A DNA stretch of 64,000 nt from Candidatus Marinacidobacterales bacterium (GTDB taxonomy: Bacteria > Acidobacteriota > Vicinamibacteria > Marinacidobacterales > SMYC01): positions 3,008,001 to 3,072,000 of the forward strand of contig OZ250169.1 in NCBI GenBank assembly GCA_965237955.1, in the 5' to 3' direction. Under the pieces are notes generated by a model that made no database searches, was not told where the DNA came from, and saw only the letters and a list, made by a program, of their open reading frames with translations. Positions 3,846-54,860 of the stretch are shown piece after piece (the stretch's first letter is position 1; each line of letters begins with the position of its first letter). The position numbers were made by a program, and so were the translations under genes.

Positions 3846-3973
3846 TCGGACTCCTCCTTTTCGATGCGTATTCGACTGACTTTGGCACATCGATGCCGTC
3901 TATGTCAGCGGAGGAGTCCATTCCATCACTTGATGGCGGAAGCACTTGATGGCGGAAGCACCGAATAGAGTCC

Positions 3974-19298: not shown

Positions 19299-19774
19299 AT
19301 ATCTGGACTCCTCTAGTCAAGCCCCTTTCTTAATAAATCTTCCATCGAAGCTGCGCATCCATCGCGTCGTGACGAGTGGGTCAGACTGCAAACGTATCTT
19401 CGGCCTCAGTGAGGAGCGTCTTGGGTGCTCCGGGCCATGATGGAAAATCCGCGCGCGAGGAGCCAATCACTTTGAACGACCTCTCTTAGGGCTAGTGTTG
19501 CTATCGGCTTGACCCCGCGCCGGTCCGACCGGTACGCCATCAGTTGGATGGGTATCGTCGCAGCCTCTTTTGGAAGGGAAAAAGGAAAACACGAAAGTGG
19601 AGCCTCTAAGTCTAAGCGGCCATCGGCGACTGGAATTCACTCTCGCGGGTGGAGACGGCCCAGACGATCCGGGCGAGTTTGTTGGCGACAGCAATCACGG
19701 CCTTGTTGTGTCCCCGCGAGCGGTGGACCTTCCGAGCCCAGGCGCGGAGCTTGTCGGGCGGGCTCTTACTGACG
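19299..19774 (-). repeat. Extra IS1111 right-end unit (bridge RNA plus transposase 3' tip)
   Basis: Starts ATATCTGGACTCC and breaks at TTACTGACG, where TATCTGGACTCC restarts. Confidence 0.9.
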
Positions 19775-36099: not shown

Positions 36100-39000
36100 A
36101 TGAACTATCCCTTGAGACACATCTCCATCCGCGTCCCTTGGCACGATACCGGATGGGACGGGCGCGTCTGCGCCGCGCCGCGGCTGAATGGCGCTTGCCT
36201 TAAGCTGAAGCGCATTGCAGAAGACCGAGACGACGATGCAGAGGAATCCGTTGCGGGAAGGAGCATCAAGGATCTCCTGCAGGCGAAGTGGCCATCGTGT
36301 ATTGCCGAGCGCTCGAGTTTCATGGCGCCCTTTGAGTATGTCCGCGAGGCCGATCATCCTTACAACCGCGGCCCTGAGACAAGCCACGGCCACTTCAAGC
36401 GAACTCCTCTGCGCCATCCACCCTACTCTGCGCCGGCGGTACCCTTCGCCTGGGTGCTTCGCGAGGCGATGGAAGCCTTTGGCAAGGAGCATGCGCTGGA
36501 TGTTCAGGCCGAACGTGAACCCGACCTGGGCTTCAAAACCCAGTGGGTTCAGGAGCACCTGAACCAGACTGTTCTGCTCGACTGTTTCGCCAGCCACCTC
36601 AAGTCCGAACACTCCCTCTGCTTCTTCTACGCCAAGCAGGTACCATTCGTGGAGGCCTCAGCCGGCGTCCGCATTCTGATCGGCGTCGGACGCGTGCTGC
36701 ATGTCGGTGCCGCGCAGGAGTACGCCTACACTACGAAGGATCTCAAAGGCAAACTGCGCTCTATGTTGTGGGAGCGCATGGTTCAGCACTCCATTCGTCC
36801 CGACTTCAAGGATGGCTTCTTGCTGCCGTATCACGCGGCCATCGAGAAGGCTGCTGAAGACTCAGAGTTCGATCCGGCAGAGATCGCTGCTTTCTCACCC
36901 ACCGATCGACTCCTCGAGTTCTCGCATGCCTCGCAATTGGTCAGCCATGACGGTGCCATTGCATCGTTGCTCGCGTGCGCCGAATCGCTTCGCAAGGCCA
37001 AGGGAGTCCTGCTAGGGCCGTGGGACCAGTGCCTGCAGTGGATCGACGCGCGTCTCGGTGAACTATGGAAGGCGCGAGGCCCGTGCCCTGGACTCGGCTC
37101 GGCGCTGTCCGCGTTCGGGTTGCAGTTCGGCACTTTCGTCGCCCGCGCCCTCGCCGAGAAGGCGGGTGCCAACACCGATCCCTGGCCGTTGGTTGACAAG
37201 ATGTTTGCCGATCCCAATAAACACCTGCCAGACCCACTGGCCCAGAGCGTCGGCAAGACGCTGTGCAGCAAGTGGTACCGTCTACCCGATGATCGCCGTG
37301 CGCTGCTCAAACTCGTCAGCCGCTTCGAGATCACACGGGAGCAGGCGACCGCTCTCTACGTTCAGGAGGAGCGTGCCAAGGCGGGAATCGACACGCACGA
37401 CACAGCCATTCTCGCCAACCCGTACCTGTTCTACGAATTGACGCGCTTGACTGGCGACCCCGTCAGCGTCTGGACCGTCGACCGGGGTGTCTTTCCGGAC
37501 GAGGTCATCCGAGAGAAGCACCCGTTGCCTGCGCCGACGGCTTTGGACGCCGGAACGGATGCCCGACGGGTCCGCGCGTTCACCGTCAAGGTTCTTGAAG
37601 ACACGGCCGGCGTCGGCAACACGCTCCTTCCGCAGGATCAGGTGGTCCTCGGCATCCGCGGGCTCACTCTCCAGCCACCTTGTGAGGTGGACGCCGACCT
37701 GATGAACGTCGCCAAGGACGACTTCGAGGATTCAGTCGACGAGCTCGCCATGGCCAACGGAGCTCCGGCCCTCCAGTTGGGTCGTCTGGCGCAGGTGGGA
37801 GCGACCATCCGCGTGGCGATCGATAAGCGGGTCAAGGGCAAGCGCATGACCGTCGCGGCCGATTGGCGAAAGCTCCTCGACGCCCACCTCGCCGCGCAGT
37901 CAACTGGAGAGCCCGACGAACTAGAAGAGAGCGCCCGGGCGGAGAAGACTGCGGCGCTGACTGAACTTGCAGAGGCGCGGCTCTCAGTGCTGATCGGCCC
38001 CGCCGGAACAGGCAAAACCACCTTGCTGTCGGTGCTCTGTTCACACCCAAAGGTCGCGGCGGGCGGAATCCTGCTACTTGCGCCTACCGGAAAGGCGCGC
38101 GTGCGCATGGAGCAGTTCACCCAGGGCCTGAAACTCAAGGGCTACACTATCGCCCAGTTCCTGAGTCCGCACCGCTACGACGGCACCACCGGCCGCTATC
38201 GGCTTTCGGACAAACCAATCGAGGCCGGCGAGCAAACGGTCATCATCGACGAGGCTTCGATGCTGACCGAAGAGATGCTCGCGGCGCTGATCCAAGCGCT
38301 CAAGGGCGTGCACCGGCTCATTCTCATCGGTGATCCGCGCCAGCTCCCGCCCATCGGCGCGGGTCGCCCGTTCGTGGATATCGTCAAGCGCCTCACTCCG
38401 CAAGACGTCACGGAGAAGTCCCCGCGCGTCGGCCCGGGCTATGCTGAATTGACCATCCGCCGCCGCCAGGCAGGAGAGGATCGCGAAGACCTGCAGCTTG
38501 CGGAATGGTTCAGCGGCGCACCTATTGCGGCGGGCGAGGATGAGGTGTTCGACAAGGTGGTGCACACCGGCCGAAGCCAGCACGTTCGCTTCGTGCAGTG
38601 GGAGACCGCTGACGATATGCGCTCAAGCCTCATCGACGTCTTGGTGAGTGAACTGAAACTCCCCGACGGCACGCTGGCTCTCAATGGCCCCGATGACATC
38701 GCTGGCTTCGATGCCACGCTCGGGGGTGAGGCCTGGAACGACATGCGCTTCTTCAATCCTCGCAGAGACGAGAAGGCCGGTGCCGCCGAGACGGCCGCGG
38801 GCTGGCAGATCCTCTCGCCGGTACGGTCCGCGGCTCATGGTGTGCCCGACCTGAATCGCTTCATCCACAAGCAGTTCCGGCAGACGATGATCGATGCCGC
38901 GCGCGAGGTGGGGTGGCGGCGCAAGTATCCCAAGCCCATGGGGGCCGAGGAGATCGTATACGGGGACAAGGTCATCAACCTAGTGAACACCGACCCAAAA

Positions 39001-39861
39001 CTCTGGTGGAACAAGCACCGCAAGGTTTACCCGGCGAAGGATGACGCCTACATCGCCAACGGCGAAATCGGTATGGCTGTCGGCTTCTTCCGTAAGAGGG
39101 GGGGGCCGGACTTTCGCTGGAAACTCGAGGTCGAGTTCTCTTCGCAACCTGGCTTCAAGTACGACTTCACCAGTCGTGACTTTGGGGAAGAAAGCAATGC
39201 GGTCCTTGAACTCGCCTACGCGCTGACGGTGCACAAGTCCCAGGGCAGCGAATTCGGTACGGTCATCCTCGTGTTGCCGAACCCTTGCCGCCTGCTCTCG
39301 CGCGAGTTGCTCTATACTGCACTTACTCGCCAGAAAGATCGCATCGTCATCCTGCACCAGGGCCCGCGCACCGAGTTGCGTAAGTATTCCTCGGACGACC
39401 GCTCGGAAACCGCGCGGCGCTTGACCAACCTCTTCGTCGCGCCGTCACCCGTCGAAATCGATGGCCGCTTCTTCGAGGATTACCTGATCCATCGCACCGC
39501 GCGCGCCGAAATGGTGCGATCCAAATCTGAAGTGATCATCGCAGACCATCTTGCCAACAATGGCGTCGCGTACGGCTACGAACAGCCGCTCACCATCGAG
39601 GGCATCACCAAGTACCCTGATTTCACCATTGAGGACATAGAGTCAGGGTTGACGTTCTATTGGGAGCACTGCGGAATGCTACATGTGCCCAGCTACCGCC
39701 GCCGTTGGCAAGAGAAGCTCGGGTGGTACCGAGCCCACGGCATTCTGCCGCTGGAAGAAGGGAGCGGCAAGAACGGCACACTGATCATTACGCGCGACGA
39801 AGCCAATGGAAGTATCGACTCCGCGAAAATCAATACCCTCATTACAGACGTGCTCAATTGA
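36100..39861 (+). CDS. RecD-like SF1 helicase with C-terminal nuclease-like domain (1253 aa)
   Basis: GPAGTGKT, IIDEASM, GDPRQLPPI, AYALTVHKSQGSE and LLYTALTR. The tail reads RSKSE...PDF...YWEHCG. Confidence 0.88.
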   Translation: MNYPLRHISIRVPWHDTGWDGRVCAAPRLNGACLKLKRIAEDRDDDAEESVAGRSIKDLLQAKWPSCIAERSSFMAPFEYVREADHPYNRGPETSHGHFKRTPLRHPPYSAPAVPFAWVLREAMEAFGKEHALDVQAEREPDLGFKTQWVQEHLNQTVLLDCFASHLKSEHSLCFFYAKQVPFVEASAGVRILIGVGRVLHVGAAQEYAYTTKDLKGKLRSMLWERMVQHSIRPDFKDGFLLPYHAAIEKAAEDSEFDPAEIAAFSPTDRLLEFSHASQLVSHDGAIASLLACAESLRKAKGVLLGPWDQCLQWIDARLGELWKARGPCPGLGSALSAFGLQFGTFVARALAEKAGANTDPWPLVDKMFADPNKHLPDPLAQSVGKTLCSKWYRLPDDRRALLKLVSRFEITREQATALYVQEERAKAGIDTHDTAILANPYLFYELTRLTGDPVSVWTVDRGVFPDEVIREKHPLPAPTALDAGTDARRVRAFTVKVLEDTAGVGNTLLPQDQVVLGIRGLTLQPPCEVDADLMNVAKDDFEDSVDELAMANGAPALQLGRLAQVGATIRVAIDKRVKGKRMTVAADWRKLLDAHLAAQSTGEPDELEESARAEKTAALTELAEARLSVLIGPAGTGKTTLLSVLCSHPKVAAGGILLLAPTGKARVRMEQFTQGLKLKGYTIAQFLSPHRYDGTTGRYRLSDKPIEAGEQTVIIDEASMLTEEMLAALIQALKGVHRLILIGDPRQLPPIGAGRPFVDIVKRLTPQDVTEKSPRVGPGYAELTIRRRQAGEDREDLQLAEWFSGAPIAAGEDEVFDKVVHTGRSQHVRFVQWETADDMRSSLIDVLVSELKLPDGTLALNGPDDIAGFDATLGGEAWNDMRFFNPRRDEKAGAAETAAGWQILSPVRSAAHGVPDLNRFIHKQFRQTMIDAAREVGWRRKYPKPMGAEEIVYGDKVINLVNTDPKLWWNKHRKVYPAKDDAYIANGEIGMAVGFFRKRGGPDFRWKLEVEFSSQPGFKYDFTSRDFGEESNAVLELAYALTVHKSQGSEFGTVILVLPNPCRLLSRELLYTALTRQKDRIVILHQGPRTELRKYSSDDRSETARRLTNLFVAPSPVEIDGRFFEDYLIHRTARAEMVRSKSEVIIADHLANNGVAYGYEQPLTIEGITKYPDFTIEDIESGLTFYWEHCGMLHVPSYRRRWQEKLGWYRAHGILPLEEGSGKNGTLIITRDEANGSIDSAKINTLITDVLN

Positions 39862-39873
39862 TCTTTTGAGTTT

Positions 39874-40706
39874 GATCCAGTTTCGTGGACACCTTCTGAA
39901 AGGCGGATACGATGTCCACGATGGCAAAGACAACGCAGCCCCGGCGACGTCGCCTGGAGTTTGATGACGAATTCAAGATGGCTGCGGTCCGGCTGGTTGA
40001 GCCTTCTATTTATTCATTCGCGCGCACCGAACTTGATTAGTCTCCGGTCTGCCGGGACCATGCCGACATGATTTCGTCGTTTGTTCGCGCTCTCGTCTCT
40101 GCCTTCAACCCCCTCGTGTCATGTGGAAATCGATTCGCACGACCAATACTCTGGAGAATCTCAACCGCGAGTTTCGACGCCGGACGAAAACCCAAGCGTC
40201 GTTCTCCAGCGAGGAGTCCGCGGTCGCTTTGCTGTTTGGGCTTATCGCCTCTGGCCAGATTCAACTACGGCGCATCGACGGCTACCAACGTCTGAGTGAG
40301 GTTCTCGAACACGCGGAGGTTGCCGCCTGATCTGATGCCCTGATGACAGAGTGGAGGGCGCCGTTCTTTTTCCACGAACCTCGGGACACATCCAGCGCCC
40401 AAGTCTCTGCGCGTGCGTGGCAGGGTGGGACACCCCGTCCTGTGCCAAAACTCGGCCCTTTTGAAATAGACCACAAATCAGCAGCTTAGACGCCCTTGGA
40501 ATCCGCGCAGAAGCGAGGGTATCTCGCGCCGCAGGGTTGTCTTCCGACCTGTGCCTTCTATTTTATTCATCCGCGGGCACCAGCTCGCGACGAGCCTTGA
40601 AGGCAGAGATGAGAGCAAGAACAAACGACGAAATCATGTAGGTATGGTGCCGGTAGACCGAAGACCAATCAAGTTCGGGGCGCGCGGATGAATAAATAGA
40701 AGGCAC
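39874..40706. mobile_element. Stack of IS remnants
   Basis: IS3-like left end with OrfA start, a C end, an IS256 C-terminus and right IR (to ~40393), an A-MITE piece, and a C-type MITE at 40550-40706. Confidence 0.7.
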
Positions 40707-40731
40707 AGGAGCTTCCGGTTCTTGGCTGGAA

Positions 40732-42400
40732 GGTGCTTCCGCAATCAAGTGTTGGTGACTGCCGCGTAACCCGCTCGTGTGCTAGAGTTTGAGCCTGATT
40801 TCGGGAGACGCAGTTTTTTCGACGATGCGGGCTGGGCTGACCACACGGTGCCTGACATTCAGGGACACCTTCGTGTGCACGCCGACATCCTTATCAATGG
40901 CGTTCGCCGACACAGGCAGGCCAGCTGACATTAGCATTCAAACACGGCGTAGCAACATATCTGGACTCCTCTAGTCAAGCCCCTTTCTTAATAAATCTTC
41001 CATCGAAGCTGCGCATCCATCGCGTCGTGACGAGTGGGTCAGACTGCAAACGTATCTTCGGCCTCAGTGAGGAGCGTCTTGGGTGCTCCGGGCCATGATG
41101 GAAAATCCGCGCGCGAGGAGCCAATCACTTTGAACGACCTCTTAGGGCCAGTGTTGCTATCGGCTTGACCCCGCGCCGGTCCGACCGGTACGCCATCAGT
41201 TGGATGGGTATCGTCGCAGCCTCTTTTGGAAGGGAAAAAGGAAAACACGAAAGTGGAGCCTCTAAGTCTAAGCGGCCATCGGCGACTGGAATTCACTCTC
41301 GCGGGTGGAGACGGCCCAGACGATCCGGGCGAGTTTGTTGGCGACAGCAATCACGGCCTTGTTGTGTCCCCGCGAGCGGTGGACCTTCCGAGCCCAGGCG
41401 CGGAGCTTGTCGGGCGGGCTCTTACTGACGTTCGCCGCGCGGAGCACGGCGCGCCCGCCCTGGGTGAGGAGCATACGGAGGTAGGAGTCGCCACGCTTGG
41501 TGATGCGTCCGAGGCGGCGAATGTCGCCACTGGAGTTTTCCTTGGGAACTAGGCCGAGGTAGCTCGAGAAGCGGCGCCCCGATGGGAAGCGGCGAAGATC
41601 GCCGACGAAGCCCACGATGGCGGTCGCGGTCAGAAGTCCGATGCCGGGAATGGCGAGAAGTCGTTGGACTTCAGGAAGCTGCTTGGTGAGCGCCTTGAGC
41701 TCGTGCTCGATGCCAGCGCACTTGTCCTTGAGTTCTCGAATCTCGGAGCAGGCATCACGGAGATGCGAACGGAGCACGTCGGGCAAATCAGAATCAGCGT
41801 CTTCGACGAGTTCGAAGAGGGCGGGCACGACGAAGTGAGCGCCCTTTGGGATGATGAATCCGAGTTCGCGCAGGATCCCGCGTACGGCATTGATGCGTGC
41901 GGTCCGTGTGGAGAGCCATCCTGAGCGCAGGCGATGGAGCGCGGCGAGGCTGTGCTGGTGCACGGACTTAATGGGCACGGGAAGAATCTCCTCGTTCCTG
42001 TAGGCCTCGAGCAACGCTTTGGCGTCGGCGCGGTCGTTCTTGCTCCCGCGTCGATAGGGCCTCACGAGGTGAGGTGGGAGCAGGACGACGTCGTGTCCCA
42101 ACCTTCGGAACGTCCTTGCCCAGAAGTGAGCAGAGCCGCAGGCTTCGAGAAGCACGGTGGCAGCGCTCTGTTTGGCAAAAAACGACACCAACTTGGGTCG
42201 ACTCACACGGAGTTGCTTGGACACCTTCCCCGCTTCTCCCGAGATGGCAATCTCGAAGACGTTCTTTGCAAGATCCACAGCGATCGTCGTATCTTTCATT
42301 CGGACTCCTCCTTTTCGATGCGTATTCGACTGACTTTGGCACATCGATGCCGTCTATGTCAGCGGAGGAGTCCATTCCATCACTTGATGGCGGAAGCACC
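40732..42400. mobile_element. MITE B carrying IS1111 copy 4 (40957-42380)
   Basis: Both MITE IRs are present and the insertion point is the same. Confidence 0.9.
41268..42299 (-). CDS. IS110-family recombinase
   Basis: Protein is identical to the other copies. Confidence 0.95.
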   Translation of the reverse strand: MKDTTIAVDLAKNVFEIAISGEAGKVSKQLRVSRPKLVSFFAKQSAATVLLEACGSAHFWARTFRRLGHDVVLLPPHLVRPYRRGSKNDRADAKALLEAYRNEEILPVPIKSVHQHSLAALHRLRSGWLSTRTARINAVRGILRELGFIIPKGAHFVVPALFELVEDADSDLPDVLRSHLRDACSEIRELKDKCAGIEHELKALTKQLPEVQRLLAIPGIGLLTATAIVGFVGDLRRFPSGRRFSSYLGLVPKENSSGDIRRLGRITKRGDSYLRMLLTQGGRAVLRAANVSKSPPDKLRAWARKVHRSRGHNKAVIAVANKLARIVWAVSTRESEFQSPMAA

Positions 42401-42420
42401 ACAGCGGGTACACGCCGTGG

Positions 42421-42617
42421 ACCTCCTCGTCAAACCAGACCGTCAAATCGTCCCGGCGGCGCAGGACCTTCGTTGCATTCCGCCCAGTTGCGAACGTGGT
42501 ACTTCTTCTGTTTCGGGTGTTTGTACCGGCTGCGCTTGGGATACTTCATGGTCAAACATACCCCGGCCACCACCATAGGCAGATTTCGCTCTCAGCCAAG
42601 AGCGGTGCAACAACGCC
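42421..42617 (-). mobile_element. Diverged IS5 type 2 5' fragment
   Basis: GGCGTTGTTGCACC end and YHVRNWAE-like coding. Confidence 0.75.
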
Positions 42618-42679
42618 TCGGGAGCTACGAGACCTGTCCTGGGCCACTCGTGGAGGGCAGGCGGTATTGTCGCACCCTT

Positions 42680-43525
42680 CTACTTTTTCTTGCGCGTCCC
42701 GGCGCGAGCCGTCGGCTTCCTGAACGGGGTAGAACGCCTATCTGGTTTCCTTCCGGTCTGCCCAGCGCGACGACTCTTCTTGGCGACCGGCGCAAGATCG
42801 TCATCAGAGACCCCACCCATATCGATGTCGACGCCGAAGACCGATGACAGCCTGTCGGATTTGAGCACCCTGCCACTCCGGGACTTGTCTCCAGTCGGTG
42901 GCTGGTCGACGGCGGCCTCCACCATCTCGGCTGGGTCGACACCTCGCAAGGTGAACAGCAGCTCCGGCTCGTGGTCGAGGCGTGCGCCTACGCCGTAGAG
43001 CGTCGCCGCCACGTGCTTGCACATGGTCGCCCAGTCGGGGCACGAGCAACTCAGCGAGATCTCCCGAGGGGCAGGAAACAATCCCTCTCCCTTGCAGGTC
43101 ACGATCTCCATCACGCCCTTGGAGATGGAGCCCTGCAGCAGCTCGACCAGCGAGTCGATTTTGCCTGCACATTGGCCCTTGATGTTGGTCCAGCGCTTCT
43201 TCGCCAGGCTTTTGATCTGGGTGTCCACCTCATAGATGTCGGAGCCGCTGACGAGAGATCGCACACGCCCCGCCTCGATCTGAAGATCGATCACCGAACC
43301 GTTGTGCACGTAGGTTCGGCCGCGAGGCAGGCGGTTCGAGTAGTCGCTGTACGACTCGAGGTTCTTGCACCAAGCATCACCCCAGAAGGTGGTTGCGATC
43401 TTGCGGCCCACGATCTCGATCGGTGAGATCTCGCGTCCGGCTTTTTTCATCTTAGCGACCCTCTTCGCGGCATGACGGCGGCGCGCTGCCACGGAGACGT
43501 AAGGGCGCCACGAGTACCAGCCCAT
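42680..43525 (-). CDS. SWIM zinc-finger protein
   Basis: NRLPRGRTY and CSCPDWATMCKHVAA. Confidence 0.9.
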   Translation of the reverse strand: MGWYSWRPYVSVAARRRHAAKRVAKMKKAGREISPIEIVGRKIATTFWGDAWCKNLESYSDYSNRLPRGRTYVHNGSVIDLQIEAGRVRSLVSGSDIYEVDTQIKSLAKKRWTNIKGQCAGKIDSLVELLQGSISKGVMEIVTCKGEGLFPAPREISLSCSCPDWATMCKHVAATLYGVGARLDHEPELLFTLRGVDPAEMVEAAVDQPPTGDKSRSGRVLKSDRLSSVFGVDIDMGGVSDDDLAPVAKKSRRAGQTGRKPDRRSTPFRKPTARAGTRKKK

Positions 43526-43570
43526 GAGCTCACCTCACGCTTTCTTGTGACGAGCGCGTTCGTGCATCTT

Positions 43571-43673
43571 CTATTCCTCCAAGGCGCTGCTCAAGTCGAG
43601 GGACACCATAGAGATCAAATCCTCGTTGCTCATCTCCGTCAAGGCCGACTCCGCACCACCTGAAAGGAGCTTG
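43571..43673 (-). pseudogene. SNF2-family helicase C-terminal tail
   Basis: KLLSGGAESALTEMSNEDLISMVSLDLSSALEE*, directly upstream of the SWIM gene, which is a typical pairing. Confidence 0.6.
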
Positions 43674-43910
43674 CCCGTCCTGTGCGGTGCTTCCGCAATC
43701 AAGTGTTGGTGGCTGCCGCGTAACCCGCTCGCGTGCTAGAGTTTGAGCCTGATTTCCAGAGACGCAGTTCTTTCGGCGATGCCGACTGAGCTTACCACGC
43801 GGTGATTGACGTTCAGAGACATCTTCGTATGCGCGCCGACATCCTTATTTATGGCGTTCGCCGACACAGGCAGGCCAACTGACACTAGCATTCAAACGCG
43901 GCGTAGCAAC

Positions 43911-44994
43911 ATATCTGGACTCCTCTAGTCAAGCCCCTTTCTTAATAAATCTTCCATCGAAGCTGCGCATCCATCGCGTCGTGACGAGTGGGTCAGACTG
44001 CAAACGTATCTTCGGCCTCAGTGAGGAGCGTCTTGGGTGCTCCGGGCCATGATGGAAAATCCGCGCGCGAGGAGCCAATCACTTTGAACGACCTCTTAGG
44101 GCCAGTGTTGCTATCGGCTTGACCCCGCGCCGGTCCGACCGGTACGCCATCAGTTGGATGGGTATCGTCGCAGCCTCTTTTGGAAGGGAAAAAGGAAAAC
44201 ACGAAAGTGGAGCCTCTAAGTCTAAGCGGCCATCGGCGACTGGAATTCACTCTCGCGGGTGGAGACGGCCCAGACGATCCGGGCGAGTTTGTTGGCGACA
44301 GCAATCATATCTGGACTCCTCTAGTCAAGCCCCTTTCTTAATAAATCTTCCATCGAAGCTGCGCATCCATCGCGTCGTGACGAGTGGGTCAGACTGCAAA
44401 CGTATCTTCGGCCTCAGTGAGGAGCGTCTTGGGTGCTCCGGGCCATGATGGAAAATCCGCGCGCGAGGAGCCAATCACTTTGAACGACCTCTTAGGGCCA
44501 GTGTTGCTATCGGCTTGACCCCGCGCCGGTCCGACCGGTACGCCATCAGTTGGATGGGTATCGTCGCAGCCTCTTTTGGAAGGGAAAAAGGAAAACACGT
44601 ATCTGGACTCCTCTAGTCAAGCCCCTTTCTTAATAAATCTTCCATCGAAGCTGCGCATCCATCGCGTCGTGACGAGTGGGTCAGACTGCAAACGTATCTT
44701 CGGCCTCAGTGAGGAGCGTCTTGGGTGCTCCGGGCCATGATGGAAAATCCGCGCGCGAGGAGCCAATCACTTTGAACGACCTCTTAGGGCCAGTGTTGCT
44801 ATCGGCTTGACCCCGCGCCGGTCCGACCGGTACGCCATCAGTTGGATGGGTATCGTCGCAGCCTCTTTTGGAAGGGAAAAAGGAAAACACGAAAGTGGAG
44901 CCTCTAAGTCTAAGCGGCCATCGGCGACTGGAATTCACTCTCGCGGGTGGAGACGGCCCAGACGATCCGGGCGAGTTTGTTGGCGACAGCAATC
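43911..44994 (-). repeat. Three tandem extra IS1111 right-end (bridge RNA) units of 396, 293 and 395 bp
   Basis: (A)TATCTGGACTCC restarts at 43911, 44307, 44600 and 44995. Confidence 0.92.
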
Positions 44995-45307
44995 ATATCT
45001 GGACTCCTCTAGTCAAGCCCCTTTCTTAATAAATCTTCCATCGAAGCTGCGCATCCATCGCGTCGTGACGAGTGGGTCAGACTGCAAACGTATCTTCGGC
45101 CTCAGTGAGGAGCGTCTTGGGTGCTCCGGGCCATGATGGAAAATCCGCGCGCGAGGAGCCAATCACTTTGAACGACCTCTTAGGGCCAGTGTTGCTATCG
45201 GCTTGACCCCGCGCCGGTCCGACCGGTACGCCATCAGTTGGATGGGTATCGTCGCAGCCTCTCTTTTGGAAGGGAAAAAGGAAAACACGAAAGTGGAGCC
45301 TCTAAGT

Positions 45308-46339
45308 CTAAGCGGCCATCGGCGACTGGAATTCACTCTCGCGGGTGGAGACGGCCCAGACGATCCGGGCGAGTTTGTTGGCGACAGCAATCACGGCCTT
45401 GTTGTGTCCCCGCGAGCGGTGGACCTTCCGAGCCCAGGCGCGGAGCTTGTCGGGCGGGCTCTTACTGACGTTCGCCGCGCGGAGCACGGCGCGCCCGCCC
45501 TGGGTGAGGAGCATACGGAGGTAGGAGTCGCCACGCTTGGTGATGCGTCCGAGGCGGCGAATGTCGCCACTGGAGTTTTCCTTGGGAACTAGGCCGAGGT
45601 AGCTCGAGAAGCGGCGCCCCGATGGGAAGCGGCGAAGATCGCCGACGAAGCCCACGATGGCGGTCGCGGTCAGAAGTCCGATGCCGGGAATGGCGAGAAG
45701 TCGTTGGACTTCAGGAAGCTGCTTGGTGAGCGCCTTGAGCTCGTGCTCGATGCCAGCGCACTTGTCCTTGAGTTCTCGAATCTCGGAGCAGGCATCACGG
45801 AGATGCGAACGGAGCACGTCGGGCAAATCAGAATCAGCGTCTTCGACGAGTTCGAAGAGGGCGGGCACGACGAAGTGAGCGCCCTTTGGGATGATGAATC
45901 CGAGTTCGCGCAGGATCCCGCGTACGGCATTGATGCGTGCGGTCCGTGTGGAGAGCCATCCTGAGCGCAGGCGATGGAGCGCGGCGAGGCTGTGCTGGTG
46001 CACGGACTTAATGGGCACGGGAAGAATCTCCTCGTTCCTGTAGGCCTCGAGCAACGCTTTGGCGTCGGCGCGGTCGTTCTTGCTCCCGCGTCGATAGGGC
46101 CTCACGAGGTGAGGTGGGAGCAGGACGACGTCGTGTCCCAACCTTCGGAACGTCCTTGCCCAGAAGTGAGCAGAGCCGCAGGCTTCGAGAAGCACGGTGG
46201 CAGCGCTCTGTTTGGCAAAAAACGACACCAACTTGGGTCGACTCACACGGAGTTGCTTGGACACCTTCCCCGCTTCTCCCGAGATGGCAATCTCGAAGAC
46301 GTTCTTTGCAAGATCCACAGCGATCGTCGTATCTTTCAT
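45308..46339 (-). CDS. IS110-family recombinase
   Basis: Protein is identical to the other copies. Confidence 0.95.
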   Translation of the reverse strand: MKDTTIAVDLAKNVFEIAISGEAGKVSKQLRVSRPKLVSFFAKQSAATVLLEACGSAHFWARTFRRLGHDVVLLPPHLVRPYRRGSKNDRADAKALLEAYRNEEILPVPIKSVHQHSLAALHRLRSGWLSTRTARINAVRGILRELGFIIPKGAHFVVPALFELVEDADSDLPDVLRSHLRDACSEIRELKDKCAGIEHELKALTKQLPEVQRLLAIPGIGLLTATAIVGFVGDLRRFPSGRRFSSYLGLVPKENSSGDIRRLGRITKRGDSYLRMLLTQGGRAVLRAANVSKSPPDKLRAWARKVHRSRGHNKAVIAVANKLARIVWAVSTRESEFQSPMAA

Positions 46340-46486
46340 TCGGACTCCTCCTTTTCGATGCGTATTCGACTGACTTTGGCACATCGATGCCGTCTATGTC
46401 AGCGGAGGAGTCCATTCCATCACTTGATGGCGGAAGCACCGCACAGGACGGGGTCAAGAGCCGTGCTTCGGCTACCCACCCAACTT

Positions 46487-47968
46487 CTACCGGTCGGCAA
46501 GGGGTTCCGACAGCAACCGCCGCGCCGCTGCCAGGAGTCGATCCTTCCAGGCAACGCGTTCCCGCCAGTGGTCGGGGATGGCGTTCAGGCCGTAGAGGGC
46601 GCCGGCGAGCTGCCCCGTCACTGCTGCTACCGTATCGGCGTCGTCGGCCAGGTTGGCCGCGAGCAGCACCGCGCTGCGGAAGTCTCCGGTGCGGGCGACT
46701 GACCAGATGGCGGCTTCGAGCGTGTGAACGACGTACCCGCTGGAGCGGATCGTATCCCGTGTCCGTCCTCGCCAGCTACCGGCTATGACCTGAGTGATTG
46801 CCGCCGCTCCCGTGAACCGTCTCGGAGCCAGAACGTCCGAGAACGGTGACCCGCCAATGGCGTCTGCCAGGAGTGCGCCGAACGCCCGGCAGGCGTCCAC
46901 TGCTTCCTCGGCTCCGTGGGTCGTCCGGGACTGGTCGGCGGCTGTTGCGAGCAGGCGCGGCCGGTCGTGCCTGAACCGGAGCGCAACGGGGGCGAGCCGC
47001 ATCAGCGAGCCGTTGCCTGCGCTCAAGGGATCGGTCGAACCCGCGACCGGGTCACCCGTCCGTAGGTACCGGGTGAGCGCTTGGCAGGTCGTGTTTCCGA
47101 TGTCGAAGCAGTCTCCGCTCCACGAGTAGTCTCCGTCTCGCCACCACTTCACGAAACGGTCCATCAGGTCCCGGCAGTCGAGCGTCTTGGATTCCGCCAG
47201 GCTGTCGGCAAGGGCCAGCGCCATGGCCGTGTCGTCGGTCCAGGCACCGGCCGGCAGATCGAAGGGGCCGCCACCGACCATGTCTTCTAGACGCGGCTGC
47301 GTATCGCGAGAGCAGAATTCGAGCGTCGTGCCGACCGCGTCGCCCACCGCCAGACCGAGGAAGGCCCCGAGCGCCCGGTCGTGGATGTCGTCCGCGGTCC
47401 GGGATGGAACCGATGGTGCTCGTGCCGAACACTGCCTCACGTGGGCCAGCTGGGAGTCGTTCTCGATGGTCCCTTCGTGGGCGTCGCGCACGCGGCGGAT
47501 CGCATCGTCCGGTTGCACGCCCAACTCCACCAGCAGGCGGGCTGTGATGGTCCCGGCACGTCCCAGACCACCCCGGCAGTGGAGCAGCACGTCGAAGCCG
47601 AGCCGCAGCCGGTTCCTGATGGACTCGCCGGTGGCCTTCCAGGCGTGCTCGAAGTCCTGTTCCGGCGCCTCTCCGTCGGGAATCTGGGCATGCCACCACT
47701 CCATGTGCCGGTCTCGAACCGCCCTCGGGAGATCGTGCACCTTCAGACAGGCGAGCTCTTCGTGGGTGATCAGGCTGACCACCGCAGTCGCTCCCCAGTG
47801 CTGAATCGCGTCGAGGTCGGTGTCGAGATCCCGCTTCCAGGGCCCGGATATTGCGTAGCGATCGATCCTACCGGGGCACTGCGAGAAGCCGATTCGGCCC
47901 CGGCCGTCGCCCAGGGTCATCGCCGTGATGCGGAGTGGGTGGCTCTCGCTGGTTCTTGCCGTCGGCAT
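46487..47968 (-). CDS. Cys-phosphatase-ADP-ribosylglycohydrolase fusion, allele 2
   Basis: Full 493 aa. It differs from allele 1 in patches (EELACLK vs EEIPDLK; HEGTIEND vs REWTIENG). Confidence 0.9.
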   Translation of the reverse strand: MPTARTSESHPLRITAMTLGDGRGRIGFSQCPGRIDRYAISGPWKRDLDTDLDAIQHWGATAVVSLITHEELACLKVHDLPRAVRDRHMEWWHAQIPDGEAPEQDFEHAWKATGESIRNRLRLGFDVLLHCRGGLGRAGTITARLLVELGVQPDDAIRRVRDAHEGTIENDSQLAHVRQCSARAPSVPSRTADDIHDRALGAFLGLAVGDAVGTTLEFCSRDTQPRLEDMVGGGPFDLPAGAWTDDTAMALALADSLAESKTLDCRDLMDRFVKWWRDGDYSWSGDCFDIGNTTCQALTRYLRTGDPVAGSTDPLSAGNGSLMRLAPVALRFRHDRPRLLATAADQSRTTHGAEEAVDACRAFGALLADAIGGSPFSDVLAPRRFTGAAAITQVIAGSWRGRTRDTIRSSGYVVHTLEAAIWSVARTGDFRSAVLLAANLADDADTVAAVTGQLAGALYGLNAIPDHWRERVAWKDRLLAAARRLLSEPLADR

Positions 47969-47989
47969 GGACTCTATTCTCTAACGGGG

Positions 47990-48085
47990 CTGTGCTCCGC
48001 AAAAAAGAAGATTGGCCAGAAGCAGCCAAACATAGTAGGTCTAGAACGTGCAATCAACGCCGGATCGATTTATTGCGGAGCACAG
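47990..48085. repeat. 96-bp MITE-like element
   Basis: 13-bp IR CTGTGCTCCGCAA / TTGCGGAGCACAG. Confidence 0.55.
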
Positions 48086-48109
48086 GGCAACAGTAAACGA
48101 AGCAAGCAG

Positions 48110-48666
48110 CCGCGGATGAATAAATAGAAGGCACAGGCGATTGATCAGCGCGAGCGCAGCGTAAAGTCTTAGCGTCATCTCACCAACACTTAATGGCGGA
48201 AGCACCCGCAACGAGAGCCGCGGCCGTTTCACCGAACGGCGGAGCACGGCGAGCTGCTGCCGAAGAGCGACATTCTCGAGAGCCAGCTCGTGGCGAGCCT
48301 TGAAGGCAGAGACGAGAGCGCGAACAAACGACGAAATCATGCCGGCATGGTGCCGGCAGACCGGAGACTAATCAAGTTCGGTGCGCGCGGATGAATAAAT
48401 AGAAGGCACAACTATCGCGGCTCCGATCTGAACGTTTTCGTCTCGGCGCTGAAGGACAAGTCAAACATTGAGGTTTGCGTTCGCGAGTGGTACGGGGGCT
48501 CCTCGAACTAACACCCATTGGCGATCGTCGAGAACCCTGTAGCGAAACTTACCAACGCCACACCTCACCGATGTTCTCGATCCGGGCCAGTCCGTCGCTT
48601 GATCTGATAGCATGATAAGGAAGTGGAGGAGCGCCGTTCTTTTTCCACGAACCTCGGTACACATCC
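48110..48666. mobile_element. C ends, a B-type IR and an IS256-like right end
   Basis: AATAGAAGGCACA ends at 48135 and 48409. CACTTAATGGCGGAAGCACC lies at ~48187-48206. TTTTCCACGAACCTCGG lies at ~48641. Confidence 0.7.
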
Positions 48667-48703
48667 GGGGATGGGGATTATTTAGACTGTCAGAGGGAAC
48701 GAC

Positions 48704-50345
48704 ATGGCTACACACTCTGAGTATTTGGCAGGCCTGACATTAGAGGACCGCACTGCGCTTGAAGGTCGCCTGCTCGAACGGCAGTCCGGAAAATGCTTCA
48801 TTTGTGACGACACCATCGATCCCGTACTCCACCAGGATCAGCTCGACGTTGACCATACCGTCCCGCTGGCCGAGCAAGGCGCAGACGACGAGCACAACTT
48901 CGCTCTGACTCATGCGAGCTGCAATCGGAGCAAGGGCGCGTCCGACCTGCGAGTGGCACGCCGCATGGCGGAATTCGAGAAGCTCCAGCAGCAAGCCCTT
49001 GAGCGTGGCGAACGCGGAGCGAACCTGGGACACGTGCTTGCCAAGCATGGCGGGGCCAAGGCTGCCATTCGACTCCGGAATTCGGGTGGCAGGATCGAGT
49101 TCACTCTGTCGGCCGCCGGTGACGAAACGATTCAGAGTGTTCCCCTGTATCAAGATCCCATGAGCGGCATGATGTACTTCTTTAGCGTGTTTCCGCTGGA
49201 GTACATCCACCACGACGACTGTATCAACCCGCGTTCCATTGGGAGAAGCATACGCCCGCTGATCGAGGAGTTCTTGCGGAAGCGACCCCAACTGCACGTT
49301 GGCCTGGCGTGGTGGGCACCGGAAGAAGACGGCACAGGAAAGATCAAGATGTTTGACGGACAGCACAAAGCGGCGGCCCAGATTCTCATTGGCAGCCGAG
49401 AGCTTCCGGTGCGCGTATTCGTCAAGCCAGATCTTAACGTTCTGGTCCAGGCAAACACCAACGCCGCTGATAAGCCAAGGCAGGTCGCGTTCGACACGGC
49501 GGTTCTGCGGCACCTCGGCAGCACCCTGTACGCCGAACGAGTCAAGCGGTACCGGGAGTTAAAAGGACTCATAGATGACGATGATTCCTTCAGCGAAAAG
49601 GACCTCGTAGCGTTTTTCCACGGCGAGCGCAGAGAGGTACAGAAATACATCGTCGACTGGGTGCGGGACTCGGTGAACTACCACCGGGACAATCGCCTCA
49701 AGGAGTATGTGGAATGGGCCGGCAAGAAGGGAGATAGGTCGCTCGCTTACGCGACCCTGGAACGAACATTCTTCGCGGAATTTCTTTGCAAGTACGCCCT
49801 CGACACGCCGATCGGACTCGGCATGGACCGTGGAGACAATCCGCGAATGATCGAGCGAGACCAGCTGGTCCGGCTGATGAGTCTGTACGCCGACATCTTC
49901 TTCGTGGGTCAGTGGGATCCGGACCTGGGCGGACGACGTCTGGAAGGGCCGCCTCCAGAAAGGGGAAGTCATCGCCGAGGGACACCTTCGGGCGTGGCGC
50001 GTTACGCGCGAGGAGATTCTGGCTATGATCATGCAGCACGTCCGGCTTGCGATCGAGAACTACTTCGCCTGGCAAGGCAAACTAATCGAAAAGGACCGGT
50101 TGATGCAGTACCGGCTTCCAGAAGACGTCTGGGCGCGGGTCGAGACATTTCTCCGCCGTCTGTCAGGTCTGCCGGCGTGGATCGACAAGAACCTCAGCAA
50201 CACGGTCTTCGGTGCTAAGCAGAATCGAGATTTCTGGGCGGAGGTCTTCAAAACAGGAAGAAGCACGACCGGTGTTCAGGTTTTCACAGGGCCCATTAAC
50301 GTCATCGACATGATGCAAGAATCAGGCTCAGGGCGGACACGATGA
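48704..50345 (+). CDS. HNH endonuclease fused to a DGQH (ParB/DndB-like) domain; one frameshift near 49947
   Basis: CFIC...DVDH...HN...HASCNRSKG, then FDGQHK. Removing one G joins 48704-49947 to the 50025-50345 frame. Confidence 0.75.
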
Positions 50346-50878
50346 AGATCCCCGGCAAAGCAAACGTCAACAAATCGCTAGTGGACCTCAGGAAGAGTCT
50401 CAAGGAGTGTCTGGCCCAGGTCAATCAGGAGGCAGGGATGTTGCTCTCCAAGGGCAGCTATGCGCGCGCCGAATCGCTAGTCAAAGTCGCGAAGTCCGTC
50501 GACACTTTCCGCGTCGACGTTGAGAGCCTCCACACACGGTGGAAGGAGATCAAAGGCGGACCTCAAGGTACCGCCAAGACGCCACAAACTCCGCTCTGGG
50601 AGTACTACCAGCCAATCCTTCAGGCCCTTATAGATCTCGACGGTGCTGCCAAGTCCGCTGAGATTGAGCCAGCAGTCGGACTCCTGCTGAAGGGTCGTCT
50701 TGTTGAAGGCGATCTGAGCATCATGGCCAATGGGAGCGCGCGCTGGCAGGCCATGATTCGCAGAGCCAGAAAACACATGGTGAAGGAAGGCCTTCTCGAC
50801 AGCGATACGGGGATGGACTGGAAGATCACGCAACAGGGACGCAAGGCGGCCGCAGCCAGGAAGAACGCAAAGGGTTGA
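50342..50878 (+). CDS. Mrr N-terminal-like winged-helix protein with a helical N-terminus
   Basis: YYQPILQALIDLDG...RW...IRRARKHMVKEGLL...WKITQQG. ATGA overlap with the upstream gene. Confidence 0.75.
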   Translation: MKIPGKANVNKSLVDLRKSLKECLAQVNQEAGMLLSKGSYARAESLVKVAKSVDTFRVDVESLHTRWKEIKGGPQGTAKTPQTPLWEYYQPILQALIDLDGAAKSAEIEPAVGLLLKGRLVEGDLSIMANGSARWQAMIRRARKHMVKEGLLDSDTGMDWKITQQGRKAAAARKNAKG

Positions 50879-51063
50879 GGCCATTCCCTACGAACGTTTG
50901 AGCGGTCCTCTCTGAAGACTGTATGGCTGAGGCTTCGGCATTGACGCGGCCGGATGGGCGACACTTGGCATCGGGCTCTAACGGTACCTGTGGCGCGCGG
51001 TGTTTGAGGCCGGCGACGTCATGCGACCTCTTGCCCGGGCAACCTGTGAGTATCGGATAGACA

Positions 51064-52497
51064 ATGGCCAACCCATTCTTCGATCACCCCATCCTGAATT
51101 CGCCCTATGAGTGCCCACAGCGGCACTGGGAGTTGGACTTCGAGGGGCAGCCGACGCATCAGGTCTTGGACCGCCGTCGGCGCGCCGAGTTCATCACGCC
51201 GATTCCAAAGCCGAAGAAGCGGAAAGACCGGCAGCAGGCCGAGATAGTCTTCGACGAGGGGAAAGGCCTCTCCACCAAGGAACAGCAATACGATCCGACC
51301 TCCATCATCAATGAAGTGCGTCAAAACGTGGATGTGTGGCGGGACTTGCCTAACCCCAACCAGTGGCAGGTCAGCCCGGAAACCGCGCGCCTGCTCCAGC
51401 ACTGGCGGCGCCACCCGTTCGGCAGCATCCGCCCGTTCTTTTGTCAGGTGGAAGCCGTCGAAACTGCGATCTGGCTGACCGAGGTCGCGCCACAATCCAA
51501 GGGCGGTAAACGGTTGCTCAACCACTTGGCCAGAGCCAACAAGGACGCCAATCCCGAACTGATGCGCCTCGCGCTGAAGCTGGCCACCGGGGCCGGTAAG
51601 ACAACTGTCATGGCCATGCTGATCGCGTGGCAGACCATCAATGCGGTGCGCCGCCCCGGCAGCAAGTCCTTCACCCGAGGCTTCCTGGTCGTCGCACCAG
51701 GTCTGACCATCAAGGATCGGCTCCGCGTCCTCCAGCCGAACGACCCGGACAGTTACTACGCCAGCCGAGAGCTCGTGCCGCACGACCTGCTCGATGACGT
51801 GAACCGTGCCAAGATCGTTATCACCAATTACCACGCCTTCAAGTTACGCGAGCGCATCGAGCTGTCTGCCGGCGGACGCGCGTTGCTCAGGGGCCGCACC
51901 GGCGACGAGCTGAACACCACTGAAACCGAAGGGCAGATGCTCCAGCGTGCCATGCCTGACCTGATGGGCATCAAGAACATCCTGGTGCTCAACGACGAGG
52001 CGCACCATTGCTACCGCGAGAAGCCACCGGAGCCGGACGATGCGCATCTGAAGGGCGACGACAGAAAGGAGGCCGAAAAGAACAACGAAGCGGCCCGCCT
52101 CTGGATCTCCGGTCTCGAAGCTGTGAATCGTAAGCTCGGCCTCTCCCGTGTGATCGACCTGTCCGCCACGCCATTCTTCCTGAGCGGGTCCGGCTATGCC
52201 GAGGGCACGCTCTTCCCATGGACGATGAGCGACTTCTCGCTGATGGACGCCATTGAGTGCGGCATCGTGAAACTGCCACGCGTCCCGGTCGCGGAAAACA
52301 TTCCCGGCGACGAAATGCCCGTCTATCGCGACCTTTGGAAGAACATCCGCAATAAGATGCCTAAGAAGGGGCGCAGCCAGGGCGGAGAGCTTGATCCGCT
52401 CAAACTGCCCACTCGACTGCAAACCGCTCTTGCGGCGCTCTACGGGCACTACGAGAAGACCTTCACGCTGTGGGAGGCAGGGGGCATTCGTGTGCCA
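51064..52497 (+). pseudogene. Type III restriction (Res) subunit, truncated by element A
   Basis: PILNSPY, LATGAGKT, DEAHH, LSATP and DAIECGIVKLPR. Confidence 0.85.
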
Positions 52498-53597
52498 CCC
52501 CGTCCTGTGCCAAAACTCGGCCCTTTTGAAATAGCCTATAAATCAACAGCTTAGAGTCTGTGTTTTGCGACCGGGTTAAGGGCCGTGGGCTTCACAATCG
52601 TCTGGCCCGAGGGTGTTATCTTTGGAGCCATCATGACGTACCACGTGCAATTCTTACTGCTCGTTCTGGCGGGCTGGGTCAACCGCCAGCAGCAGGATGT
52701 GATTGATTAGCTGCGAGAGGAGAACCGTGTGCTCCGAGCCGGGCTTCGGGGTTGCGCCAGAGTTTCACTTCAACCACCACCAGATGCCCCTCTGGCGTGA
52801 TGAACAGGTTGTCCACCGACCCAACGTGGAGCGGAAGTTCCATACAGACGGGCACGAGAGGGCCGATACCCGGCTCGATCTGGTCCATGGGCAGACACGT
52901 CGGATGCTGGTGGATGAGTTCTTGCAACCAGCGCTCGTCCAAGTTGGAGGCTTGGTGCAGGCGCGTGGATTCGCCTTCCGACACCAGAATTGGCGTTCCG
53001 CTCGCGGTAGTCAATTCGTGCTCCAGGGTTGATCTCGCCGGTCGGGTCGGCCTCGGCCGACGTCGGCAGGTTCTTGAGTGCGCCTCGCAGGCGCGTATAT
53101 CCCCACGTCGGGTTCTCCCGCGCCACGCGCACAATGAGACTCACGGATGTCCTTCGCCGTCGGAGGTCGGCCTGGACTCCGGTTCTTGCTGCCATCGTAC
53201 TTGGCTGCGATGAGGCAGCGGTACCAGCGCAGAAGCGTAGCGGGTGTGGCAACGGACGCAATCTGGGCCAGCGCCTCGCGGCCCAAAGCCTGGGCCTTGA
53301 CCGCGAGCCTGCGCCGCTCGTCGTCCGAGAGCCTGAGACGCTTGCCCCGAAGCCCGGCTCGGAGCACACGGTTCTCCTCTTGCAGGTAGTCGATCACATC
53401 CTGCTGCTGGCGGTTGACCCAGCCAGCTAGAACGAGCAGTAAGAATTGCACGTGGTACGTCATCATGGACCTGAAGATAACACCCTCGGGCCAGACGATT
53501 GTAAAGCCTACGGCCCTTGGCCCCGGCGCAAACACAGACACTAAGCTGCTGATTTATGGCCTATTTCAAAAGGGCCGAGTTTTGGCACAGGACGGGG
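52498..53597. mobile_element. Two inward-facing A left ends enclosing a PD-(D/E)XK/NucS-like gene fragment (~52752-53066)
   Basis: Transposase 5' pieces on opposite strands. The internal fragment reads ERWLQEL...SVDNLF...VVEVKLWRNPE. Confidence 0.7.
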
Positions 53598-53682
53598 AAC
53601 AGGTTTATTGGCAGACCTATTCTTAGGCCGGCCAAGGAGCCACCGCTACCCCAAATTCAACATCCGGCGGGACATCCCCGTC

Positions 53683-53829
53683 CATTGGTACAACACGCAA
53701 CGACTCTTGGAGCCGATCGGAAATGTCTCCCCCGTCGAGTACGAGATGAACTACTATCGGTCGCAGGAAGGCTCGCTGGAGATGGCGAGACTCAACTAAA
53801 ACAGTCTCCGGAAAACCCGGAGCGGTTCA
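53683..53829 (+). mobile_element. IS3-family right end
   Basis: HWYNTQRLLEPIGNVSPVEYE and terminus ...GGAAAACCCGGAGCGGTTCA. Confidence 0.8.
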
Positions 53830-53885
53830 GACACCGAAGACCTTGAGTGTCGGACCAATACTAAACTTGTACATTCGGCCACCTG

Positions 53886-54860
53886 TTAGCGTGCACGATA
53901 CAAGACCTCTGATACACGAAGGGATACGGCACTAGGGATTATTGCCGAACCTTTAACCAACTCCCGTAGAGAGTCTCTCGCATTATCGGATTCGGGCACA
54001 TTAGATCCAATCGTGATCTGACTACCAGTATTAAGAATCGACTCGCAATTCAATTCTGGAATCTGAACGTACTGTCTAACACGACCATATTGTACATGCT
54101 TTCCTCGAATGGCGTCCTGCACGTCCTTTTCATCATCCTCTGACAGAAATGCGACAGCCCTATATTCCCGTTCCATTGCATAGTGCGACCTTTTCCGAAG
54201 AAATCTTTGTCTAAACAGAGGATCACACGCCGCAACAACCCCCAGGCAAATCTCTGACCAGAGGTTCGCATCCAACGCACGACTGTGTAGGTCCTCAAGA
54301 TCTCTCAAGAACGTCGAGAACACTGATAAGTCCATCTGTATTGGCAACTCATCAGCGTACGTGATCTTTCCGACAATTGTATTGTCAACTAGTTCTCTCG
54401 ATAAATGAGGGGGAATTGTAATAGACACACCGCGGCAGTCACTACCATAAAGTCTCCAAAACAGGAGATCATCCCCCGCATCTATCGTTTGCCCGTCTGT
54501 GTGCTCAATACCAACAAAACAGCAAACATTCGCTGCGCCGTAGCGTTTCCACACCCATGACTCTTTGCCCAATTTTTGCAGCAAACATGAAATGAAACTA
54601 CCTTCAGACGTAACGCGGCCCTCTTCCGGGTCATTCATTGTTGACGTGTCTGAAAGTCTGAGCCCCCCATCTGGTGCTTGGAGCATGGAAACGATTACTT
54701 CCAAAGAAGTGTAGTGAGCCAAGTGCAACGTCACTGGCGGGTCATCTCCCGACCGCGAGATAGATTGTACGTCGTTCCATCGTCGTTGAAGCTCGCGCGC
54801 TTGCGCGGTAATGTCGACAGCTTTCTGGCGCAAGACTTCGAATGTTTGAGACCTACTCAT
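53886..54860 (-). CDS. DUF2971-like protein
   Basis: LAHYTS, MNDPEEG, DDLLFWRLYG...GVSI and KRSHYAMEREYR. Confidence 0.75.
   Translation of the reverse strand: MSRSQTFEVLRQKAVDITAQARELQRRWNDVQSISRSGDDPPVTLHLAHYTSLEVIVSMLQAPDGGLRLSDTSTMNDPEEGRVTSEGSFISCLLQKLGKESWVWKRYGAANVCCFVGIEHTDGQTIDAGDDLLFWRLYGSDCRGVSITIPPHLSRELVDNTIVGKITYADELPIQMDLSVFSTFLRDLEDLHSRALDANLWSEICLGVVAACDPLFRQRFLRKRSHYAMEREYRAVAFLSEDDEKDVQDAIRGKHVQYGRVRQYVQIPELNCESILNTGSQITIGSNVPESDNARDSLRELVKGSAIIPSAVSLRVSEVLYRAR

Follow-up and report, generated by a model that had tools for sequence, protein, structure and literature searches.

Tandem copies of a predicted bridge-RNA end ahead of an IS1111-group element, a probable by-product of one-ended recombination

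Tandem non-coding units next to IS110 transposases are already in print, as a preprint, since Hu et al. (bioRxiv 2026, 10.64898/2026.08.14.744561) describe 468 such expansions, each defined as two or more neighbouring units on one strand, of ≥50 bp and ≥95% identity, beside a transposase. In the sections of that preprint considered here, tandem partial modules have one-sided donor matches, tandem units retain almost only LD matches, and partial circles reuse a terminus, with the unmatched side no better than chance. For CazIS110-1, Sun et al. (10.1101/2025.10.25.684509) report one-ended top-strand transfer (LT-RD to nLT-RD) and, as transient by-products in 3 of 96 excision colonies, tandem repeats; for IS621, Xie et al. 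(10.64898/2026.08.31.748434) report half-match recombination, for which one matched arm and the core suffice, as well as single-strand copy-out in which the donor stays intact. In ISPpu9 (PMC12288879), RNA-only ssr9 minicircles form via the transposase, and the RNA module lies beside the gene or apart from it. The original prediction that arrays such as the one described here were new to the literature is thus overtaken by the 468 cases of Hu et al. Papers on arrays of whole bridge RNAs with diverged guides, or on target shortage, were not found in a search of mainly the open literature and the text of preprints, and arrays of whole bridge RNAs with diverged guides are likewise absent from the passages considered from 10.64898/2026.10.21.760802 and 10.64898/2026.03.19.712850.

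Our array lies in the genome of a Candidatus Marinacidobacterales bacterium, within a stretch of 64,000 nucleotides (the window). At 43912-46422, three partial end copies (396, 292 and 396 bp) precede one full IS1111-group element, an arrangement that falls within the definition of tandem non-coding expansion used by Hu et al. (2026). The terminus motif TATCTGGACTCCTC starts four times, at 43912, 44308, 44600 and 44996, so that the predicted restarts are real, although of the predicted positions (43911, 44307, 44600 and 44995) only the third was exact, and of the predicted lengths (396, 293 and 395 bp) only the first. The array and its surroundings comprise the following features.

43686..43909, no strand assigned: left part of the host element, a ~245-bp non-coding element bounded by inverted repeats
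43904..43911, plus strand: left target half and core, TAGCAA-CA
43912..44307, minus strand: unit 1, 396 bp, with the terminus, the whole predicted bridge RNA and the last 28 transposase codons and stop
44308..44599, minus strand: unit 2, 292 bp, with the terminus and the whole predicted bridge RNA
44600..44995, minus strand: unit 3, 396 bp, equal to unit 1 in sequence
43912..44599, no strand assigned: higher-order repeat of units 1 and 2, 688 bp, equal to 44600-45289 except for a 2-bp insertion
43916..43925, plus strand: subterminal inverted repeat TGGACTCCTC, repeated in every unit, with its partner at 46405-46414
44996..46422, minus strand: full IS1111-group element, with non-coding end, transposase, short left end and CA core at 46421-46422
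45308..46339, minus strand: IS110-family DEDD recombinase gene, 343 aa, open frame

The recombinase matches Pfam PF01548 (E 2.6e-12) and PF02371 (E 6.2e-25) as well as NCBIfam NF033542 (309 bits; cut-off 140), combining a DEDD RuvC-like domain with a C-terminal, serine-containing Tnp domain as expected of the IS110/IS1111 family. It carries D9, E52, D89, D92 and S257 within the expected motifs, whose roles are those assigned in IS621. The 10-bp subterminal repeats (TGGACTCCTC / GAGGAGTCCA, 4 and 6 bp inside the cores) and the long non-coding stretch downstream of the gene (312 bp at 44996-45307 versus 81 bp upstream) place the element in the IS1111 group, following the group's description in PMC11187229 and PMC11208160. 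Its nearest named relatives, at 90-98% identity, are in Candidatus Marinacidobacterales. The genome is a single contig of 8.13 Mb with ~17 near-full copies of the element and its end motif at 19 loci, five of them inside the 64-kb window; the five full IS copies within these 64 kb share one orientation. Several genomes have IS copies interrupted at position 218 and near 1121 by another element, with ends GTCCTGTGCC... (for example at G000:C1:3192939 and L007, G000 being the window genome), and short end remnants of the same type flank the array's host element at 43674-43685 and 46441-46452. The surroundings of the array at 36100-54860 resemble a defence island, with genes for a RecD-like helicase, a phosphatase/ADP-ribosylglycohydrolase fusion, an HNH protein, an Mrr N-terminal domain and a type III restriction subunit, and a separate two-copy tandem of 405 bp (87% identity) lies at 59418-60222.

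The target is the right inverted repeat of the host element (46421-46440), which is itself abundant, with 22 near-full matches in the genome; a longer relative of the host element (L052) encodes an IS1-like transposase, its match to NF033558 reaching 58.5 bits, below the cut-off of 100. Across 57 distinct element flanks, the core is CA in 54, and 45 match the left-target guide described below at 6-7 of 7 positions. The empty-site joint was seen in three of four runs, and the element thus has a specific target for which empty sites exist, as is typical of IS110/IS1111 elements. The host repeat also carries a 16-bp duplication that starts at the CA core on the element's far side (window 3927-3961, and also G000:C1 near 2974145 and 7874096), possibly the same type of slip on the target side. 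In several distant relatives (L082, L108, L113, L120, L135 and others), the RNA-end dinucleotide is GG or CG and that of the far end CA; since the two differ, the CA belongs to the element and there is no duplication, a pattern that would fit single-strand joining.

On the gene's strand, four predicted guide segments follow one another in the order TAGCAACAC, the complement of AT-CA-CTT, TTCCATCAT and AGATACG. By the strand rules of Sun et al. (10.1101/2025.10.25.684509), these are LTG, RTG, LDG and RDG, with RD as the end that is duplicated. In unit 1 they lie as follows.

44105..44113, minus strand: predicted left-target guide, TAGCAACAC on the RNA strand, equal to the left target half plus core
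44077..44084, minus strand: predicted right-target guide, complement of AT-CA-CTT
44049..44057, minus strand: predicted left-donor guide, TTCCATCAT, equal to the element's far end plus core
44005..44011, minus strand: predicted right-donor guide, AGATACG, complement of CG-TATCT

The left-target guide has the same offset in every unit and co-varies with the target in relatives. Together, the four segments match the target and donor halves, as expected of a bridge RNA. Among the 15 distant relatives listed, the right-donor guide is present in 13, and the left-target guide matches its own target at 7-9 of 9 positions in 12, the latter by a best-match search run without a shuffle control. A 91% paralog at G000:C1:5245812-5247240 has altered target guides and an altered target, which match each other; its left target (ATAACAAT-CA) and the position-398 breakpoint described below (ACAGCAAT-CA) are alike at 6 of 8 positions, which makes cross-talk between the RNAs of the paralog and of this element possible. 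The predicted RNA has a fold z of -2.3, a search of Rfam with its region returned no match, and a promoter-consensus scan of 43600-46600 gave 0 sites against 0.8 expected; the public RNA runs, compared as contigs only, have a word share of at most 0.14.

Element position 398 (...CAGCAAT-CA) is where units 1 and 3 stop, and position 294 (...GAAAACA-CG) where unit 2 does, in line with the prediction of one inner breakpoint for the outer two and another for the middle one. None of the three departs from the genome's common allele (0 differences in unit 1), and each contains all four predicted guide segments, which bears out both the claim that each unit keeps its guide loops and the judgement, made by eye, that the guides are identical. 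The idea that one breakpoint is always the exact core holds for the terminus and fails for the dinucleotide, CG having replaced CA at the joint of unit 2. Beyond the far end of the element comes the ordinary right target half and, as had been predicted, the remainder of any copy so interrupted is missing. A 2-bp insertion near position 269 sets the final full copy apart from the three units and is common only to it and to the copy at window 2500. Because 43912-44599 equals 44600-45289 apart from this insertion, two events would suffice for the array, a 396-bp duplication followed by a 688-bp duplication, and the breakpoint shared by units 1 and 3 reflects a single event that was copied rather than two; a hotspot reading of that breakpoint is unnecessary.

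The array is real in the assembly and very likely real in the cell, a wholesale assembly error being unlikely because terminus-anchored units recur at three further loci of the genome and in two of five relatives. Its joints are absent, among the matches listed, from the contigs of eight public runs that do contain the element (X1, X2, X7 and X9 compared with a single element copy; X3, X5, X11 and X14 with 44205-44645). The runs look like other strains (best word share with the window, 0.71), so that the missing joints carry no weight either way. An apparent joint leading back into the element in the 44205-44645 comparison proved to be a normal element running past the reference's cut edge.

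One recurrent unit lies in the window itself.

19300..19774, minus strand: further unit, 475 bp, terminus-anchored, with a CG joint, ahead of another full copy

This unit has a 2-bp insertion and one substitution in its target-loop hairpin, with intact guides. Elsewhere in the same genome, 338-bp units at G000:1133673 and G000:7864835 share their breakpoint and have different flanks, which means that a composite of the 338-bp unit and a full copy occupies two different target sites. Sixty relatives were screened for the element end, eight matched, and the five with most copies were checked. More than one terminus is present at 4 of 19 loci in the window genome, 4 of 11 in G012 (up to seven termini) and 1 of 31 in G033, compared with 0 of 4, 0 of 8 and 0 of 7 in G008, G015 and G018, so that tandem ends occur in two of the five relatives. 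In distant relatives, the terminus was found at 27 of 55 loci and a tandem end at none, most of these being short contigs with little room beyond. Neither stand-alone units nor reciprocal deletion products (target joined to interior) occur among the 34 genome matches. Other rearrangements were seen in the relatives: many G033 copies (L017, L018 and others) have a 20-bp internal duplication of positions 15-34, adjoining the subterminal repeat and with a possible effect on the junction promoter, and in L024:1805-1980 (G018), a mini-element, the far-end repeat is fused to position 340, which serves twice as a breakpoint in the window genome.

All 17 extra termini, at nine loci in three genomes, run straight into the interior of the element itself, and every unit begins at the same base, the exact element terminus. 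Unit lengths range from 19 to 565 bp, and the 12 distinct inner breakpoints span positions 21 to 795, with 11 in the element's proximal half and seven supplied by G012, whose loci hold many small rearrangements not anchored at the terminus. The first core position is C at 12 of 12 breakpoints (background 0.28-0.29; P ~4e-7) and the dinucleotide is CA at eight (background 0.04-0.05; P ~7e-8); the other four are CG, CG, CT and CC, and the dinucleotide therefore comes from the inner site, as would be expected if one strand were cut and joined behind the core. A far end running into the element interior was found in 0 of 139 occurrences, a count in which overlapping loci recur and to which distant relatives, for which the test is blind, contribute at least 26. 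On the inner side, the guides play little part: of 7 positions of the left-target guide, inner joints match 0-4, and most true flanks 6-7. The inner sites lean toward the left-donor guide (31 matches versus 20.6 expected, P 0.005 under a same-core null), though this was one of six features tested and the signal comes mostly from G012, and toward the real far end (29 versus 21.5, P 0.05). That they are near-targets is unsupported (left-target guide, 25 versus 19.0 expected, P 0.10; right-target guide, 9 versus 9), and for the four breakpoints of the window genome alone no measure of guide-likeness is significant (P ≥0.24). Two further ideas were dropped. A tie between CG joints and a CG-reading donor guide involves too few cases to use (2/5 versus 0/7), and the joints do not rebuild a circle-junction promoter, since the conserved TTGAC is kept but TGGAAT stands as the hexamer at 17-18 bp in the true circle joint alone; this last rejection was by inspection only.

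Taken together, we consider the array to be a by-product of the element's own recombinase, which would have joined the non-coding end to loosely chosen inner sites (probability about 0.72). In such a reaction, the complex of recombinase and bridge RNA would grip the terminus through one donor guide only (a half-match, at the RD end), and one strand would be cut beside the core and joined, 20-800 bp into the same or a sister copy, behind a dinucleotide resembling the core. The proposed contribution of a dinucleotide by the partner strand would explain why some joints have CG, CT or CC. Replication or repair would then fix a tandem duplication, either in place or after a partial circle had left and returned by homology, and a repeat reaction from the outermost terminus would copy earlier units as well, so that use of position 398 and then of position 294 of the full copy would give 396+292+396. 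We infer the half-match RD engagement, the single-strand transfer and the tandem fixation (by replication or partial circle) from the joints, and each step has experimental precedent in other elements. The units are not simple self-insertions, the terminus being joined to the interior with the rest of the copy absent, and the predicted recombinase-made duplication or circle reinsertion, in place or through a partial circle, is the best explanation. Several observations count against it or against parts of it. Unit 2 lacks the final copy's 2-bp insertion, which speaks against purely local two-step copying, so that either the insertion came later or the units derive from another copy; this slightly favours a route via another copy, or later slippage. 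Hu et al. report almost only LD matches in tandem units, whereas ours keep RD by guide geometry, although their labels may follow gene orientation. The joints of the array are absent, among the matches listed, from the eight runs, guide-likeness is not significant for the window genome's four breakpoints taken alone, and G012, with its other rearrangements, supplies seven of the 12.

A full copy might instead have inserted into a resident one by both ends, with the resulting long direct repeat then collapsing in a RecA-type process. This would yield the same final structure and account for the differing allele of the final copy, and position 398 does match the left-target guide at 6 of 7 positions with a 1-nt slip. 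We nevertheless regard it as quite unlikely, because insertions into the distal half should leave duplications anchored at the far end, of which the 139 far-end occurrences contain none, because no nested copy was found, and because 11 of the 12 breakpoints are proximal and most inner sites match the target guide poorly. An assembly artefact, in the entire array or in the number of units, is suggested by the identity of the units, the near-perfect 688-bp duplication and the absence of the joints, among the matches listed, from the eight runs, yet it is very unlikely: the same type of joint recurs with 12 different breakpoints in three separate assemblies and obeys a core rule that no assembler would impose, the genome is in one contig, and sequence differences set the final copy and the 19300 unit apart from their neighbours. 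Least probable of all is replication slippage or microhomology-mediated duplication without the recombinase. It could draw on the 2-bp microhomology of the CA joints and on other small duplications, not anchored at the terminus, at G012 and G033 loci, but it leaves the identical starting base of 17 of 17 units unexplained, and four of the 12 breakpoints (CG, CG, CT, CC) lack even 2 bp of identity.

The original prediction saw in the array a set of guide RNAs that would raise RNA dose or free spare guides to diverge; that it is purpose-built is not supported. Only 11 of the 17 hold all four guides, with changed guides in 0 of these 11; six have none (units of 19, 29, 29, 46 and 46 bp and one internally deleted), and the target-loop hairpins of three are damaged (window 19300, L011:2105 and L014). 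Unit length is irregular, the genome already holds its many near-full copies, and the inner joints fail to restore the -10 part of the predicted junction promoter. On the other side, all six spare units of the window genome retain the whole predicted RNA, the composite of the 338-bp unit and a full copy occupies two different target sites, and none of the 12 breakpoints falls between positions 83 and 265, the guide region, although a gap of this kind is within chance for 12 points (~0.04-0.16 by hand estimate, for a window chosen afterwards). A selected guide array is thus very unlikely; judged from sequence, the pattern fits decaying by-products better than an array of alternative guides, and the spare guide genes are likely neutral.

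The supply of targets may nonetheless matter. Exact empty targets (TAGCAACACTT) number 3 in the window genome, 1 in G012, 15 in G008, 23 in G015, 55 in G018 and 80 in G033, the one in G012 being no real site because it falls within a damaged guide loop. Of the 30 loci in the window genome and G012, 8 have units, against 1 of 50 in the other four (Fisher P 0.0013, the loci not being independent), and empty sites per locus correlate with unit frequency at rho -0.94 (n = 6; raw counts, -0.58, P 0.23), in a post hoc contrast among six related genomes, three with few copies, that is carried by G033 (31 loci, 80 free sites). In G000, most unoccupied host ends of the targeted type have a substitution inside the target motif, as if all perfect sites had already been filled. 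As a hint only, the one-ended reaction may be commoner where free targets have run out. A bolder and rather unlikely reading is that an IS1111 element whose targets are filled builds multi-bridge-RNA elements that move whole, so that spare guides could evolve new targets while the old ones are kept; it rests on the contrast of 8/30 and 1/50 loci, the composite at two unrelated sites and the six whole-RNA spare units. If true, this would be a natural route from a single guide to a guide array and, should target shortage drive the units and composites move whole, retargeting of bridge RNAs without a dead intermediate would become testable; otherwise, the array is a known by-product.

Set against known systems, the array offers a clean trace, left in nature, of one-ended recombination by a bridge recombinase of the IS1111 group. 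The 12 breakpoints keep the first core base C and on their inner side owe little to the guides, a finding of relevance to bridge editors and their off-target and self-target events. Among systems with several guide units beside the gene of one Nop-domain protein, TIGR-Tas (PMC12045711) has short, regular, processed units with different spacers, whereas ours are long (292-396 bp), irregular and identical in their guides, and the protein is a transposase; a TIGR array was rejected on these long, identical units and on the Tas profile NF052498, which scores 25.6 bits, below the cut-off of 100. ISEc11, ISPa11 and IS4321/IS5075 (PMC11187229, PMC11208160) share with our element the DEDD recombinase, the subterminal inverted repeats, the long non-coding end downstream of the gene and a target in the inverted repeat of another mobile element, but they have a single non-coding end, and the portions of these articles considered here do not mention tandem ends. 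The ssr9 modules of ISPpu9 have dedicated A'/B' boxes and insert alone; the inner boundary of our units varies, and 0 of 34 genome matches are closed by the right half of the target. IS621 half-match recombination is documented in vitro and by editing data with a full donor on one side, whereas here it would follow from joints with one fully matched donor arm only. CazIS110-1 is similar in that the best explanation here likewise has the RD end acquire a new left partner, the second end often staying unmoved, but it is an IS110-group element with matched targets and whole-cargo repeats in E. coli, while our array involves an IS1111-group element and weak inner sites and is fixed in a natural genome. 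The loci of Hu et al. share with ours the tandem accumulation of non-coding units, the one-sided donor match, recurrent inner endpoints and reuse of one terminus. Their units keep mostly LD, and ours would be RD by guide geometry and LD by gene orientation, which their end labels may follow; the sections of that preprint considered here make no statement on whole bridge RNAs in the units or on target supply.
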